64,000 bases of DNA from Catajapyx aquilonaris. Its lineage: Eukaryota. Every line of letters begins with the position of its first letter. Within the stretch, counting starts at the first letter, position 1. Positions 5,440-39,400 of this stretch are shown here, piece after piece. The stretch lies in assembly GCA_000934665.2 (NCBI GenBank), contig JYFJ02000128.1, forward strand, positions 1 through 64,000. Direction: 5' to 3'. The translations under genes were made by a program, and so were the position numbers. A model generated the notes under the pieces. That model was given only the letters and a program-made list of their open reading frames with translations, was not told where the DNA came from and searched no databases.

Positions 5440-6389
5440 ATTGTCAAGGGAATTGCACGTACCCTTTAGTCCCCTTACTAAAATGACTGCGCAAGGAAGG
5501 AAAATTAAGCGTCTATAAGCTAACGGCTAGTGTACACTACACTTGTTGCATGCAACAAAACCTGCTTCAGATCTGTTGAATGCAACATGCTTAATGCCTG
5601 TGTACACACACCTTAAGTTTGACACATGGAGCACCAGCAAACGATCACGCTCTCATTTTCTCAACTCGTTCTCACTTGTATTTTCTACCAATTCTATTCC
5701 GCATGTTGTGCTGTACAATACATGTTTCGATACAAAAGGCACTGTGATCAATCCTTCCCTCAGATAAAAAAATTAAACAATTAAGTGTAAAAAGACATCA
5801 TCATCCATTCCATATTCACTCCACAATCAAATGCATACATATCCCAATCGTTATTTAATTTCTTTTGCTCCGTTCCCCTCCCCCCCCCATATTTATTATT
5901 ACAAAATGTGGGTTCACTTTGTTGTGGAGAACCCTCAACACGAACAGGCTGCGAACTAAAAAGTAAGAATGGCAGTTTCTCATTGTTTCTCATTGTCACT
6001 TATGGCCTAAAAGTAACAAGTGGCAGTTACGGGCAAACCTGTTGTATTTTGTGTTCACACAGCTGGTGAACGACAAACTACTTAGGAAAAAACAAAAACG
6101 GTGGCAGTGCCATAGCAAAGTCTTCTAAAGCCATCGGTGACAACTGAGCCCACGCAAAGTAAGAGTTTCTACAACTGTCAGTGTGTATGAAATAAGCGTT
6201 TAGAATGAAAATCTGTGTTAAAACCACGCTCTGCCTTCAGTCCGTTGGTTCTCAAAAGTTGGGTTTTTTTTTCTGAGGTCGAATGCTTGTTAAAAAGAGT
6301 CCCTTCCTTTGTCACAAAAGTGTCTACATGCATCATCATCATTCGACTTGGCGTTTCACGAGGGGAGAAACAAAATGTTGTTAAGTCCT

Positions 6390-6489
6390 TTATACTTCAC
6401 GTGTTGCACGATTCAGTCCCTCCACAAAATTGTCCTCATAGTCTTCGTCGTCTTCGTCGTCTTCTGCTTGTTGCTGCTGCTGAGTATTG
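6390..6489 (-). CDS. Candidate distal alternative last exon of perlecan: acidic tail
   Basis: Acceptor TTTTCTCTTAACTACAG, phase-2 match giving [33 protein letters not shown]. Minus-strand AATAAA at 5892-5897 and 5434-5439. Confidence 0.7.
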
Positions 6490-9400
6490 CTGTAGTTAAG
6501 AGAAAACTTGTCAACATGTGTCCAGACAGAGATGAGTCACATTCATGGACATGAATACATGCACTATTCGTGCACTACAACTAACCACTGTTGGTAGTCC
6601 CAGAGTGAAGAGTGCATCTGCTAAAATATTGTCAGTTTCCACTCTCTTCTCTGTGAGTGGATACTGAATTTGCCTGCACTCTTGACTCTGGGATCGATGA
6701 CGATGGGCTTGAAAACAAGGTAACAATTTTGTAGACCGATAGTCAATGCTTTAAAAAATTGTAATTAGGTTAATTACATAGATAAATTCCACTACAACTA
6801 AAGTTTCATAAAGGCAGGAAAATGGTGATGCAATTTTTGTAAGTGAAAATAAGTGCTTGTTGCGCTGAATGGTTCACATGCTGCATACATATGGTATGCT
6901 TTTTATTATAGCATAAAATATAAAAAGAGGTGGTCGGGATATTTTGAACCATCCAATGTCACCAATGGACAATTCATACTTTCTCAGAATATGCCCTGAG
7001 GTTTTTGCCACACAATACTCTGTTCCCAAAACACGAGCCGAATTAAAAATTTCAACTGGCCCATCTCTTATCTTGCACAGTTACTACTCTAAGAAAAAAC
7101 ATGTCCTTCCCCTTCCTACGATATCTCCACACCCATGCCAACAATTTACTTGCCGTGAAACCCTCTTGCCGAGAAGGGGTGGGTGTAGCTGAGGCAGCTT
7201 GTGCATGTGAGACGCACAAAAAAAAAGAATATGTAACAAAAGTGGAGCCACCTACGAGAGTGAGCTCGGCATGTGAGTGAAAGGCATGTGTGTGGTGGTG
7301 GACAAGGTGACACCCAGGAGTGTGAGTGTGAGGAGCAGGCTGGGATGAAATGATTGGGAGGCATGGGAGGATGATCTGGAGGGTGATATTGAATTGTGCA
7401 AAGAAGATGCAGAAGACCATGACCCCCAAGAAGGGGTTGTGGTAGTGCGGGAGATGCGAGGCACCCGTGTGGGTCGGGTGCGTGAGATGCGTATGGAGGG
7501 TCGGGTCTGGTGTCGTGTGGTTGACGGTGGTGGTGTTGGGGTGGTGGAGGGTTCGCGCAGGTTCAGTACCAAAGAATCAGATGTCCAACGCCTCCTGAGG
7601 CAGCGTTAGAAATGGGGGCACAATAGGTAAGCCGAGACTCTTATCACAGCTGACTGCATTAGTACAATTTATGGTGTTGGACATGGCAAACTCACCTGGA
7701 GCAGGCACGAACATTCTCAGCGGAAACAGCACTGGCAAAGAGGTCAATTATGCCTGAGTTTTGGATCTGCACAGATCGTATGCAGCCTGAGAAGCCTTTG
7801 GTGTAGCGACTGGCAGTCATCAGTCTCAGGTCAGGGAGGCCACCTAGAATTAATTTTCATGTAGATAATTATAAGTTGCATGAAATAGTGATTATTTCAA
7901 CCCACACCAGCCAGATTCCCCACCCAACAGGTGGAAAGTCGAACCAAGTCCTTACCAATGTAGATGTTTCCTTGTGCATTGAGCATGAGCAGGATGCCAT
8001 GGCTCTCTCCAGATTGTTGCTGCACACCATCCAGTTCAATGGTTCCTTCTCTAGCAGTGCGCCGAAGCACAACTTTGTGGACCTTCCCATCATCTACTTT
8101 TGTGGTGGTTCGAATCTCAGCAGGACCTGACCCAAGTTCATAGCTGAACTCCAGGTAGCCACCAACAACTGCCCAAAAAAGTATTACGTGAGTACATTAT
8201 AATTACAATACAGCTTTGGACACTTTCTCATAAGATATGCATGTGAATCTGCGATAATATTGTGCTCATATGACATCAAATTCTCCCTTTCAGTGTTCAT
8301 CGCGTCATAAACAGAGTTTCTAACCTGCAAGTGCCAGATAGTCATGGGCTTTTCCATCTACATCTGGAGGCTGTCCATGCCAGAGGATGACTCCGTCACT
8401 CTCAATAGTTGCGAATTCCAGAGTGACTACTTCTGTTTCAGTGCTGGTGGCATGGGGGAGGTAGTCCTTGCTAAGCTCCACATATCCATCTCCCTGAAAC
8501 TTGACATCCTCTGCGAACTTCACCTCTGCAATGCAAGTAACAGAGATGTTATGAGAACTCTAATTAAATGAATTCAGGTGTTTACATATCAGTATGACTT
8601 ACGATCTTGGCAATTTTCACCAGAGAATCCTAGAGGACACCTGCATTTGTATGAATGGGATGTTCCAACACAACTGCCGCCATTCTTGCATGGCTGCGTC
8701 CGATGACATATTGAGTCCTCAACTTCACAGTTCTTTCCACTGAATGCAGATGGACACTGACACTCGTAATCATTGATGGCTACTCCAACTTCCCTGCACT
8801 GGCCATTATTGCGGCAAGGCTTGCGTTGGCAAGGGGATACACTCCCACAGTCCTCTACATTTGCAGCATCCACTACAGATGACACCAGGTCGAGGTCAAG
8901 CCCAGACACTTCTACTTCTGACACACACCCAGAGAATCCATCCATGACATCAACCCCAGGTGCCAAACGAATCCTCTGCCGATCAAACCCACCCACATAC
9001 AGTGGTGTACGAAGGTTGAGACCTCTGGTGGAACCAGGGCTCTGTCCTTTGACTTCCCAGTCTTCGTTTATGGTCATGATTCCTTCTTGCATGTCTCTAT
9101 CTGCAACCACTTTAAGCCACTCTCCAGGGCGAACCTCCTCCTCACTGCGAAGGACAGCAGGACCAGATCCCGTATCAAAGCGGAATTCCAGACGCCGGTC
9201 TCTGATAGCAAGGGAGGTGAAGTCGCCATGGCCATCTTCAGACTGCGCACAATACATCAGGACAGAGTCCTTCACCTCGTGAGGCTTGAATCGCATTGCC
9301 ATTCTCAACCTGTAAGTGACATTTTATTAGTATAATGTACGTACACCGATGTACACATGTGGACTGTTATTAGAACATATGACATGAAGGTCACTGTACC

Positions 9401-12400
9401 TTCTGAGCCCTTTAGGAGTTGGATATGCCACGTATGCATCGTCAGCGAAGGCAGGTTCATAGATGACGATATCCTTCTCACACCTGTCTCCAGTCTTTCC
9501 AAATGGACAGTAGCACTCAAATCCTCCATGGACATCAATGCACCGTCCACTTCCACATGCAGCTGGGTAGCAGGCCTCCCCAACCTTCTCACAGTCCCGT
9601 CCAGAAAAGCCTGCAGGACATATGCATGCATAGCCCTGGTCAGTGTGGGCCTCTTGACACACCCCTCCGTTGGTGCATGGGTTGAGGGCACATGTCTCAC
9701 ACGTTGTCACTCCCTGGGTGCTCACTGCGTCACGCACCAGATCTGCCTCGGATGTGCCTAGGATTAGACGGCTCACACACCCAACAAACCCGCGTGTGTG
9801 ACCTGCCAGTCGATGTATGCGCGAAGGGTCTGGAACACCCCCTATGTAAAGTGGTTCAACTAAGTCTAATCCTTGGAAGCGTCCCTCAGCAACACCAGAC
9901 ACAGGTGGTTGGTCATCTACCACCAGCACACCATCCTTCTTGTTCCGCTTCAGTTTTGCAGTGTGCCATTTCCCAACTTCTAAAGGCTTCTCAGATCGAA
10001 TGACAGCTGGACCAGAACCAACATCAAACCGGAATTCAGCATATCCTCCACTCAATCCGAATGACACAAAGTCACCTGCTCTTTCGCGGTCTTGCCACTG
10101 CCCATTGTAAAGTATCAGTCCATCAGTTGATTCAGGCTTGAATGAAATCTCAACATTGAACTGCAGGTATGCGTCAGGGAGTGTTGGTAATGACACGTAG
10201 CTGACTGGAGCCTGGGCAAAGTACGGCACAACACCAGTGACCACTAGCACAGTCGGTATGTCCATTGAGAGCTTGTTATTGCGTGCAGTGCAGACGTATG
10301 TTCCTGCCTCTGATGCTCTGACATCTGGTATGCTGAGGGAAGGTCCCTGAATCTGAGCCATCCGTGGGAGAATTCCACCCTGTTTCGCCCAGGTGAATGT
10401 GACGGGTGGCTCCAGGTCTGTGCGGCAATCCATCACGACCGTTGAACCAAATGGTGCAGTCCGGGTCTCCACTGGTTGATCCAGTACGGGCATGTCCGAG
10501 TGGGCTAAGCATCCAAAGAAAGGTGGGCCAGAAGGAGGGTGTGGGGGTATCAAGGGGAGGGTGGGTATTGTGATTAATCACTGCATGCCAGCCCAAGGCA
10601 ATTTGTGGGGGTGGGGTAACTGCCACTTAATAAGCTTGTGGTGTGTTTGATTAATTTGTGTAAGCATGTGTTCGATTAACGTGTGGAAGGGAGAGCATAT
10701 TGCGTGTGTGGTACTCACCAGGTATAACAGCCAGGTATAAGCGGCATTTAAAAGAACCATAAAATAATTGAGGGAGAGAGAGAGAGAGTCCCATTATTTC
10801 TCATTTGTGTGGCATCAGCTGTCCCTTGTGGCATTTAAGCAAGTGAATAATTATCACATGCCATTTACAATAAACATATTTACAGAGTAGCTAAATATTA
10901 TGAAAGGAAGTAAATGTAAACGCAGATTAAGCAGATTATGAAATGACAGGACAAAGAGAGAGATAGATAGATAGAGAGATGAAACAGGAAGTTCGGAGGT
11001 TAGTGAACACGAGGTCCATTGTCATCATCATCTGTTAAGTGAATGGAGTAGGGGAAGAGGGTGAAGAGACACACATTATAGAAGTTCAGAGAGAGAGATC
11101 TGAAACACACACATGCACTAATCCTATGACCTTACCTCCGCTGTTAAATGATATTAATCTGCCCACCAATTCATTGCTTACCCTGGATGGCCAGCACATA
11201 ATCATCTTCATACACCCCCGTGTCGGTCACAGCTTGGCAGCGGTAAACTCCACCATTGTCTGCATTCACTCCGACCACCCTGAAAAATGTATTAAAAAGT
11301 GTCACAACTACAAGTACTAAAGCGCCGAGTGCAAAACATATGAGAAAAGTTTTTGAACATGTAAATTTTGGATTGGGTAGAGGTGAGGTTTGCCTGCCTC
11401 TCTATGAACTTAAAAGTATGTTCATCTGCGCTAATTTCATTTGTCAAGTTTTCTTTACACTTTATTATGCAACGTAGCTTATATTACCTTATGGTGTTGC
11501 CCAGCACTTGGACATTGTTGGCGAGATGACTGCCAACTTTATGCCACTGGATTTCTGGTTGCCTCGTGTGACCTGAAGCCTCGCAGCTAATGTCGACAGT
11601 GTCACCCAGACGAACCTGATCATGGCTTGCCCACACTCGAACAGTCACATCAGCGACACCTGAAATAATGGTACCAATTCACACCACAAATTCAAGCCAC
11701 AGTGTTGCACGATTAATGACATGACAGGCATGCGTTGAGGTTCTACCATACTTCAAAACACTGGTTAGGTCGCATGCATAAAAAAAAGGTGTGTGTCGAC
11801 AAGACAAAAGAAGCGTGTGAAGTCTAGTTGCATCTGAGAATGAAAATGAAAATGAACCATTTCCATTTTCATTCTGTCTTTTTTTATTATCATGCACCAA
11901 CCCCGTCTAGGTCGGGGGACTTCTTCGCTGGAATCGTCGTTGTGGCAATCCTTCTTGTTGTTCTTCCTACGCATTTCCCGTTCTAAGAATGCTTCGATTT
12001 GAGTGTGGGAAGAAATTGTCAATTAAGCACTGGTTGTTAGCCTCCATAAACCATGTCAAGTTATTAGTGTTAACCTCTACAGCTATCATTTCCCATGCTG
12101 TAGTTTCCATCATGATAATCTCACTTACTTTCCACTTTGAGGATCACAAATTCGGTGGAGTACCCGGATGGGGTGCTTGCCTCGCATATGTACTTCCCTT
12201 CGTCGAATGATTGCACATTCACAATGCTCAGGATGCCATTCTCCACGAAAGAGTTATAAGGTAGCTGCTCTTCTCCCTCTTTTGTCCATTTCACCTGGGC
12301 ATAAGAGGCTTCCGGAAGGTTGCACTCCAAGTCCACCGTGGAGCCGGTAATAGCTATGTGAGTGCGCTGGTTGGGGTTCACTGGTTGAGGAACTTCTATA

Positions 12401-36400: not shown

Positions 36401-39400
36401 CAATGCATCCCCATGTCGCATCGGCAGTTTGACCAATTTTCAACTTTTGCAAAATTTGCCCAGTGGAGGACCCCCCAAGCAGCGCACATGCAGAGTCAAA
36501 CCACAGGCTTCAGGCAACAATGCTGAAGCCAAAAGCTCGATTTGTCCCCAACTGTTTCATCCTACCTTCACACCCTCTTTCGTCCGAACCATCAGGGCAG
36601 TCGGTTCTGTTATCGCATTTTTGGCGGTAAGGAATGCACGTGCTCCCATCCCCACACTCTATCTGCCACCAGACACATCCGCCACCATCTACCAACATCA
36701 TCATCATCAGTGTGGTCATGCCCATGCTAAACGTTATGCTGGCCGGCACACACATGAAACGTCTAAAAACCCTCCACGGATTTCAACCCACTGGGTTTCG
36801 GCTTGTTGGTGATTCACAAAACGGAACGGAGATGGATCGCTATAGGGTGAAACGCCTTGTTAGCTGCCCGGTCCACGGTGGTCAACCGCACAGGTTCACA
36901 CACTGAACAAGGTGCTAAACCCGTACTATTCAAAATTCATGCACTCATTTTAGTCTGCCTCGGGGCAAACACAAAAAAGCGAGTTAGCTACTTGTAAATT
37001 ATTGAACATGCTAATTGCGGCTGTAACGCGTTAATACAGTTACGCCTGTAGTGTCTAGGGGTGTGTTTGCGAAAATTAAATTGCAAAGTCTGGTTATTGG
37101 GTGTGTGGCTACCATTTACCCATCCGGGCCCCACTTGTTTTCAGATGTGGCTTGATTTCCACATAATGCAAGATTATCTTCATGCACACACTCAAAAAAA
37201 CGGCTAATTTCATCTGTTCCCCATGATTATGCAAATGCACTTGCGGGGGACGCGGTAATCTATTCGGTGCGTGCTTCAGCTTGCCGCCTTATATTGCATC
37301 ACTTCACTCGTATGGACGACGTTCATTTGCGCGCGAAAACATACCAACCCCTTGAGGTAATCGAGCTGCAGTAATTCAACTCAGTATACTTAACAAAAGG
37401 GCAATTGAAAATAAAAGTACACATGCTTTCGTCGAAAAAAATAAATGGTGTAGGATCAGGATATGTGGAGTTGTTGGAGGATACATACGGCAATCCCTTT
37501 CGTCGCCTCCGTCGGCACAGTCAGGGTTACTGTCGCACACTCGTCTGACGTCGATGCAGGTACCGTCATAGCATTGAAACTCCAGGCTGCTACACCTTGC
37601 TGTATGGTTAGGGGTTAGGGTAGGAAAAAAAATGACAAAATAAATGATACGCAAATATAAAAACAAATCCGAGTGGAGTAAGCAGTTGGCTCATTGGCTA
37701 AAACGCTCCATCGACGTATTTAGCCAATCAAATTAGCAGAAAGCCAGTTGCAACACGATTTCGATTTTCCTGCAACTTGGTTTTTTGGGGGGCTTCAGGT
37801 GAAAGCCTCCAAGTGCTTCTAGGAATTTAATTGCCTCTAACGGCGCCTCTGCTTCGAGTTAGTCCCACCAAAAACTAACCAACTGCTTTTCCCCACGATC
37901 GGTTCAACCAAACCGAAATAAAGGAACCCAAAAGCACAGAACGCATAAGAAAAACGACACTCGCACAAGAACGAATCACACATTAAACTTCACTGTCACG
38001 TGTACTTCCAGCAGACAAACAAATGGACGTAAAAAAATAAGCCTGAAAACGACACAACAGAACAAGTTTTTTGGGGGTTTTCGAAGAGAGAATAATACCC
38101 ATATACCCAGCATACGGCTTAGGAGAAGACAGTAGTTTGGATAGGGATATCACTCTATCTCACGCAGACGACGAAACGAGCTCATCGATTCCACTGAAAC
38201 GGACCATTTGGGCATCTTAACACACATCTCTCTCGCCCGTTTCCAGCGCCATCAGGGATGCGGGCTTCTTCTGTGCCCTTAACCCCTCCCCTTGTTTATT
38301 CCCAGGAAATCCTTTAAGTTTGATGAGACTATCAAGTTCTCCTTGCCGTAGAAAATAGTTAGGAGGACGACACCATAGTAGGGACCAAGATTTTGGCGAT
38401 AGGGATGTACTCGTACCGGGTACGCCAATCATACATTCGCAATTTTTTGTGTCCGGTATCTGCACAGCCCCTATGTGTTAGATGGCATGTTTGGTGGGAT
38501 GAATGTATGTAAATGTGCAATGAAAGGGTATGGAAAAAATGTTGGAAGCAAAATTAGTTTCAGTAAAATGCAAGAGAACATAAAACAGGTTATGGAAAAA
38601 AATAGGCAATAGCAAGGCAGGGTTGGTACCTAAAAACAAGCCAAAAAGCTGCAGAATATCCCCAGACATGGCATGAAGATTCCATTTGGATTTTTATCTA
38701 ACCGGCGGAGGATATACGTACAGCATCCTAGTTCATCCTCGCCATTTGGGCACTCCTTATGACCGTTACATCGTTGGCCAATGTTCAAACAAGATTTGTC
38801 ATCACACTCGAATTGATCCGAGCGACAACCTACTGGTGCTGCAAAGAAAATACTAGTAGCAAAAAAAATGTGGTGGGGGTTTGGGGGGGGGGGGGGGGAN
38901 GGGGGGGGGGAAAGGAGATAACGTCTTCACTTTGCATCCAAAACGGATCCAAAATATGGAGGCTTTTGCAAAAGTTGCTCTACTTTCAAAATGCGACGCA
39001 AAGTAACGCATCAAAATATGTTTCAGTAACTTGGAGAGCCAACTTTCACAAGTTCTCTAATAGCATCCTTATAGACTCCTTACTTGCATAATTTTCGATC
39101 TAGTTAAGAACTAGTGCTGGAATAAATTTACATGGCTAAAATTCTCGCCTGACCTGGATAAAACGCACTTGTAATCCCTTTTCAGCCCTCATAAAATTTT
39201 TGCAAATGGTCTCGCAAATCTTAATCACGTGGTCGTAACGACCATTCATTAGTCGATCACATAACTCATCGGGGTCCATAAATCGCTGTGGTGTGTACCA
39301 GAATGTAAGGACACTCACCGTCCCTTCAATAACAGCTCGTTGAACCATTAAAACCTGTTTTTTTTCACGCATCAATGTTTTAAAGCCTGCAGCGTGTACC

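Follow-up and report, generated by a model that had tools for sequence, protein, structure and literature searches.

Where a perlecan polypeptide ends, and in how many ways, is the question raised by the 3′ end of an arthropod perlecan gene (HSPG2/trol type) that lies on the minus strand of a 64,000-nucleotide stretch of Catajapyx aquilonaris DNA (GenBank assembly GCA_000934665.2, contig JYFJ02000128.1, positions 1 to 64,000; hereafter the window, which holds the 3′ end of the gene). An earlier note on this DNA had read a three-way choice of C-termini from one splice donor, and its coordinates are confirmed on the minus strand: a phase-2 donor at 7696, acceptors at 7594 and 6489 that both fit this phase, and AATAAA signals downstream of both. 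The arrangement considered probable here is a conserved two-way switch between alternative last exons, by which perlecan would end either in an acidic tail or in a stalk with a hydrophobic end that would tie the protein to the cell surface. Taken alone, the window contains two real candidate last exons, of which one is proven. The features of the choice are listed below, with joints and borders taken from a contig of sequencing run X1 where so stated.

7841-7696, minus strand: last shared exon, encoding the C-terminal part of LG3 (...NVRACS and the AG of the split codon); both borders in the X1 contig, Laminin_G_2 at E 3e-05.
7695-7690, minus strand: donor GTGAGT, phase 2, after ...GCC TGC TCC AG ending at 7696.
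7695-7595, minus strand: intron of the proximal choice, 101 nucleotides (nt), with AG at 7596-7595 and with TCTAAC and a pyrimidine run before the acceptor.
7594-7252, minus strand: coding part of the proximal last exon, 113 codons and TAG (7254-7252); from the acceptor in the sequence and homology, with no Pfam match.
7593-7564, minus strand: conserved opening motif of 10 residues, from a matrix scan and a pattern search.
7341-7303, minus strand: hydrophobic segment of 13 residues, mean Kyte-Doolittle value 2.12, followed by 16 residues.
6907-6902, minus strand: AATAAA 345 nt past the proximal stop, which may serve the proximal exon as poly(A) signal.
7695-6490, minus strand: intron of the distal choice, 1206 nt, GT..AG; a joint in the X1 contig, depth 47.9, no mismatches.
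6489-6390, minus strand: coding part of the distal last exon, the acidic tail and TAA (6392-6390), with AG at 6491-6490; a joint in the X1 contig.
6389-4819, minus strand: long 3′ untranslated region (UTR) of the distal exon; present in the X1 contig from 6489 down to 5600, past which some 760 contig letters are unplaced.
5897-5892, 5439-5434 and 4824-4819, minus strand: AATAAA signals past the distal exon, read from the sequence.

The distal, acidic ending is a real spliced product, barring a very young retrocopy. RNA evidence came from one public run (X1, kind unrecorded; no run on record as RNA was listed), compared over positions 5600-9400, in which 0.38 of the sampled words were present, roughly the share expected if only the covered exons and UTR contributed. 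A single intron-free contig of 6187 nt is 100% identical to the window across the joints 8603|8525, 8325|8168, 7954|7841 and 7696|6489, and all four introns that it skips have GT..AG ends. Scored for codon usage with a model built from 2,324 coding codons defined by tblastn, the coding part of the distal exon reaches 0.54 bits per codon in frame versus -0.24 out of frame. Of the two forms, the distal alone is represented, by this one contig of one run.

From the same contig the distal 3′ UTR is at least 790 nt long; its full length is probably some 1.55 kb, which would put its end close to the AATAAA at 4824-4819. The contig runs past the AATAAA at 5897-5892 at least to 5600 and probably also passes that at 5439-5434, and transcripts of the distal exon may be polyadenylated at several sites. 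Counted out, the contig would stop some 16 nt short of the AATAAA at 4824-4819. Coupled splicing and polyadenylation, as the earlier note had proposed it, survives as an ordinary alternative-last-exon layout, and not in its assignment of the AATAAA at 5897-5892, which the contig reads through.

As read from sequence features, one donor can serve two terminal exons, each provided with its own stop and poly(A) signal, AG|G giving Arg at 7594 and AG|C giving Ser at 6489. A layout of acceptor plus open frame is not in itself above chance, because 18 AG positions inside the 1206-nt intron open at least 25 codons in the phase of the donor; what goes beyond chance is the RNA joint 7696|6489, together with the conserved motif at the first codons past 7594. 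In the proximal acceptor, CAGGAG, two AGs stand in tandem (NAGNAG type), at 7596-7595 and 7593-7592: starting the exon at 7594 places Trp at +3 after C-S-R, as in relatives, and starting it at 7591 drops one Arg and places Trp at +2. A plus-strand gene within the intron was also considered and set aside, just short open frames and nothing in its support being found there.

The proximal tail consists of 114 residues, the Arg of the split codon and 113 codons, with Ser, Thr and Pro accounting for 59 of the 113 (52%) and Arg for 12; to judge from its sequence, the stalk is probably O-glycosylated. The opening motif belongs to a family found directly past the last LG3 cysteine, C-S/T-R/K-x-x-W-x-P/S-S-S-L-V-F/L/Y (insect consensus C-T/S-R/K-x-R-W-I/V-P-S-S-L-V-F/L/Y), the Trp and S-L-V-L of the window holding the offsets that they have in Gryllus and Cloeon. 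The pattern W...SLV[LF] occurs once in the 127,996 six-frame residues of the window, at the start of the proximal exon; and the first ten codons past 7594 rank first among 80,341 stop-free six-frame 10-mers when scored with a BLOSUM-averaged matrix from four relatives only, from the making of which the window was left out. The match is taken to lie beyond chance because the top site falls at the one predicted position. Further along the tail, the best 13-mer has a Kyte-Doolittle value of 2.12, that of relatives' tails ranging over 2.1-3.0. The tail is longer than in relatives (113 versus 55-105 residues), and it seems to have been low-complexity expansion that lengthened the stalk. No Pfam family covers either tail of the window, nor the perlecan tails of Gryllus or Solenopsis. 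The exon lies in a C-rich tract at 7055-7605 (34-42% C) in which all three frames are open for 117-174 codons, a state unusual for an intron here; tandem repeats were tried as the source of this tract and rejected, only short arrays being present.

Comparison of last exons among orthologues, which the earlier note had recommended, found both tail types in other arthropods; on this comparative evidence the proximal exon is of conserved origin, and both endings are conserved. A tail with a hydrophobic end past C-S/T-R/K is present in models of Cloeon, Neocloeon, Gryllus, Hetaerina, Artemia, Hyalella and Trinorchestia, and a further search, starting from the Gryllus tail, brought in one termite, another damselfly and about 17 Hymenoptera. 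Sought within the last 260 residues as C-x-x-(1-3 residues)-[WRH]-(1-3 residues)-S-[SD]?-L-V-[LFYKD], the motif occurs in 68 of 470 collected proteins (about 24 named species), its carriers being mayflies, damselflies, a cricket, a termite, many Hymenoptera and Artemia. Two thrips perlecan models have a hydrophobic end, yet no match to the opening motif in their last 260 residues, and their tails may start differently or be longer; an unnamed perlecan of 6021 residues carries a long Ser/Gly/Trp-rich C-terminal tail. The hydrophobic-tail exon was absent from the fly and moth models examined, the fly models ending in ...GTEPPVV.

Isoform pairs in three of these genera divide at the same split codon as the window (Cloeon XP_065349468.1 versus XP_065349473.1; Artemia XP_065579051.1 versus XP_065579048.1; Gryllus KAK7791102.1 versus KAK7791103.1), and in each, one ending opens with ..W..SSLV.., as in the window, and closes hydrophobic. 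For Cloeon dipterum, RefSeq isoform X1 and 13 other models are acidic (...KCSSDSS...DLSLQLNRAF), and isoforms X2-X7 read ...KCSR..., ...KCSRGMWVSSSLVL... and run to a hydrophobic end. Artemia has 13 listed isoforms with a hydrophobic end (...CTRRMRPESSSLV...) and, in its isoform X7, another tail (...CTSSTEGRGDIGFYESSENEV...) that opens acidic and closes in a run of Arg; Gryllus has six hydrophobic-ended models and one other, the tail of one Gryllus model reading ...CSRHVSEADNEITPRIH. Arg versus Ser at the junction of these isoform sets matches AG|G versus AG|C in the window. The window departs from the isoforms of all three genera in a stalk about twice as long, with more Thr, Pro and Arg, and in the 16 residues that follow its hydrophobic run. 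Taken together, these sequences make the end of domain V look like a hot spot at which tails are exchanged.

The distal tail, in turn, has 33 residues (Ser from the split codon and 32 more) and is acidic, with an aromatic residue. Short acidic aromatic tails past the last LG3 cysteine were found in stick insects, a cockroach, bugs, beetles, spiders and ticks, and the same type in models of a horseshoe crab, sea spiders, myriapods, an ostracod and a copepod. Examples from relatives are ...SGEYLDELEENFVQK, ...NDIFEGLEGRVHK and Cloeon ...DLSLQLNRAF, and the end of the window's tail resembles spider ...EELEENFVQK and Cloeon ...LSLQLNRAF. Comparison of these sequences identifies the acidic tail as the pan-arthropod perlecan ending, and it is the form expressed in run X1. 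Part of its coding sequence (6438-6485) is made up of five Gln codons followed by 2.7 copies of the nine-base unit GACGAAGAC (plus-strand array 6441-6464). Being built of such simple repeats, the acidic run looks able to lengthen or shorten by slippage.

The consensus for tyrosine sulfation is a Tyr amid acidic residues in a secreted protein, and the observation of the earlier note that a Tyr of the acidic tail stands in such a context is borne out as sequence, the codon at 6440-6438 being flanked by those for acidic residues; sulfation of this Tyr may accordingly be envisaged as a predicted modification. A Tyr within two residues of Asp or Glu was found in 10 of the 15 acidic tails compared and a Phe in that position in four, Cloeon having neither; four relatives' tails with extra cysteines were read by eye rather than by pattern. 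The replacement of Tyr by Phe in those four of the 15 speaks against sulfation as the conserved point of the tail, and the comparison suggests that what has been kept is an acidic peptide with an aromatic residue, and not a sulfate ester.

According to the proposed mechanism, the phase-2 donor at 7696 would pair with either of the two terminal exons. In the proximal choice the transcript would be spliced to 7594 and cleaved past the AATAAA at 6907-6902; in the distal choice the exon at 7594 would be skipped, and splicing to 6489 would yield the acidic tail with its long UTR. The proximal tail would present the opening motif, then a stalk rich in Ser, Thr, Pro and Arg, and near its end the hydrophobic segment, which would hold perlecan at the cell surface, most likely as a glycosylphosphatidylinositol (GPI) attachment signal.

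A number of observations weigh against this switch. No X1 contig covers 6490-7695, leaving the exon at 7594 without RNA evidence in the one run, a gap that was not weighed against the exon because contigs drop rare forms; and, the kind of run being unrecorded, a very young retrocopy would give an equally transcript-like contig for the distal joint, although a retrocopy is unlikely because X1 holds 85,611 contigs and 32 million letters in total. The isoforms of relatives are automated gene models, with RNA support not visible. Similarity over the whole tail is undetectable: BLASTP with the 112-residue stalk gave the correct Cloeon alignment at E 3.2 (Cloeon tail E 0.33-3.2; amphipod models E 5.9 and 4.0), and a profile of five relatives' tails missed the stalk frame at E up to 10 among 2,079 six-frame open reading frames. 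Because these whole-tail comparisons are null, homology of the proximal exon rests on the ten-residue motif at its fixed offset and on the overall layout, and the margin of the matrix scan was small (23.5 versus 22.0 for the runner-up), the score by itself being no outlier. Codon usage in the stalk, 0.088 bits per codon, is below that of all 392 true coding windows (0.235-0.54); it is above 98% of 16,917 ‘intron’ windows (mean -0.47), a background that still held real exons, its top windows near 9750 being the LG1 exon. The tract is 42% C, with three minus-strand frames open across about 7150-7560, and an open frame of 113 codons has a chance of about 7% at this composition. The hydrophobic run, finally, is 12-13 residues long and stands 16 residues from the end, as against 0-10 in six of seven relatives. 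Codon usage beneath every true coding window, the three open frames, a tail about twice the length found in relatives (113 versus 55-105) with its hydrophobic run displaced from the end, and the lack of significance in profile and BLASTP would all be accommodated if the acidic ending alone were made here and the exon at 7594 were a decaying relic of the ancestral hydrophobic-tail exon, or a chance open frame in a C-rich intron. Such an origin is nevertheless held to be unlikely, given an opening motif that has kept its full form and precise offset and outscores every other site of the window, a frame that stays open through the hydrophobic segment as in relatives, and a good branch-point and pyrimidine context at the acceptor. 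Less probable still is the third state of the earlier note, in which an unspliced or intron-polyadenylated mRNA would yield bare domain V as a regulated product. The unspliced frame does read AGG (7697-7695) and then an in-frame TGA (7694-7692), to end in ...RACSR, and the AATAAA at 6907-6902 does lie inside the long intron. Unspliced read-through of the four RNA-confirmed donors, however, gives RKSY-stop, G-stop, an 18-residue peptide and R-stop, three of the four halting within four codons, and an early stop is to be expected because the phase-2 GTGA/GTAA donor consensus supplies it; no relative examined ends exactly at C-S-R, and the bare form is without RNA evidence. The RACSR ending is best taken as what unprocessed RNA trivially reads and not as a third state of any design, and what stands of the three-way switch is the acidic ending, from its X1 joint, and the stalk ending, from homology.

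If the proximal tail is made, its role has still to be weighed. Small residues at the attachment site, then a short polar spacer and a terminal hydrophobic run are the usual layout of a GPI signal, and in six of seven relatives the 13-mer of highest hydropathy stands 0-10 residues short of the C-terminus, preceded by small residues (SGS, GAAS, SGSS), which argues for membrane anchoring of the GPI type as the preferred reading, with chances that appear roughly even; the run in the window is a poor fit to a classical signal because it is short and 16 residues from the end. The tail might instead be made and not anchor in this way: the conserved R-W-x-P-S-S-L-V peptide and the hydrophobic end might offer secreted perlecan a site for binding or processing, or the hydrophobic run might cross the membrane as a helix with a short cytoplasmic stub. 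Hymenoptera tails, which hold two hydrophobic or amphipathic runs parted by charged residues, would suit such a role, as would the 16 residues past the run in the window and the lack of a Pfam family on the tail; the GPI-like layout of the six relatives speaks against it, and a run of 12-14 residues would make a short membrane-spanning helix. This non-anchoring role is judged doubtful, if a serious contender.

The identity of the gene as perlecan is plain from its module order. By Pfam, the terminal series is Ig followed by LG-EGF-EGF-LG-EGF-EGF-LG (domain V), across 10577-7696 on the minus strand; upstream lie LDLa modules (Ldl_recept_a, E 8.8e-13 and 3.1e-14) and then Ig (Ig_3, E 4.3e-15), corresponding to domain II, the Laminin_B (E 5.6e-25, 1.6e-12 and 1e-08) and EGF_laminin (E 9e-12) pattern of domain III, and the Ig run of domain IV, with I-set at E 1.3e-29 in two stretches within one exon and many Ig-like open frames between 18,000 and 10,000. 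The 5′ part of the gene, to which the signal peptide, SEA domain and GAG-attachment domain I of a perlecan would belong, may lie beyond the window. The exons of domain V that precede the last shared one were placed from the pieces and joints of the X1 contig together with Pfam.

9311-8603, minus strand: exon encoding LG2, EGF and EGF.
8525-8325, minus strand: exon encoding part of LG3.
8168-7954, minus strand: exon encoding part of LG3.

Named perlecan models are 49-52% identical to the LG2-EGF-EGF exon, among 43 significant matches. Against 1.84 billion representative sequences the best match of LG2 is an Artemia model (43% identity); the nearest by identity are short fragments (52-58%), and the lineage appears thinly sampled because no LG2 match is more than 58% identical. 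Elsewhere in the window, open frames at 665-1461 on the minus strand resemble another gene downstream of perlecan, with an acidic run and then a coiled-coil-like ...LDKDIGDLSRKLEKLSEELAKNEA..., and single N letters stand at 38900 and 43634.

Perlecan is regarded as a freely secreted matrix molecule. A more far-reaching proposal, advanced tentatively and judged somewhat less likely than its opposite, is that insects and crustaceans possess an ancient perlecan tethered to the cell surface in the GPI manner through the R-W-x-P-S-S-L-V exon, kept here with a long mucin-like stalk. Were this so, perlecan could act cell-autonomously, in growth-factor presentation or in starting basement-membrane assembly, antibody and GFP-trap patterns would need another reading, and the choice of last exon would be a simple switch, traceable across tissues. 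The lack of the tail in fly and moth models would explain why work on Drosophila never met it.

Within the perlecan family (HSPG2, trol, unc-52) the window gene shares the module order ending LG-EGF-EGF-LG-EGF-EGF-LG. The vertebrate perlecan models examined end a few residues past the last LG3 cysteine (for example, ...NTRECPS) and have no hydrophobic tail, and the known 3′-end variants of unc-52 truncate whole domains, with no tail swap past domain V. According to a review (PMC6266596), several isoforms of unc-52 arise by regulated splicing, and its passages on unc-52 isoforms and trol describe no alternative tail past domain V. Among the listings and abstracts returned by a full-text literature search, no membrane-anchored or alternative-tail perlecan was found. 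Both isoforms are already present as automated database models in many species, and the type of switch is classical.

In NCAM-120, the H and T forms of acetylcholinesterase, and fasciclin II, alternative 3′ exons switch between GPI-anchored and other forms, and the arrangement at this locus shares with them a common donor and mutually exclusive terminal exons, one of them with a putative hydrophobic signal of the GPI type; it differs in that the alternative is a small acidic peptide, not a transmembrane or oligomerisation domain, and in that GPI attachment of a perlecan tail is so far only predicted. A further parallel is transmembrane agrin, in which a heparan sulfate proteoglycan of basement membranes, related to perlecan, is bound to the membrane by its N-terminus through an alternative first exon. 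Like agrin, perlecan would be an LG/EGF matrix proteoglycan with free and cell-bound forms obtained by exon choice, the cell-bound form being here proposed; unlike agrin, it would be held by its C-terminus, through a candidate anchor that an alternative last exon supplies.

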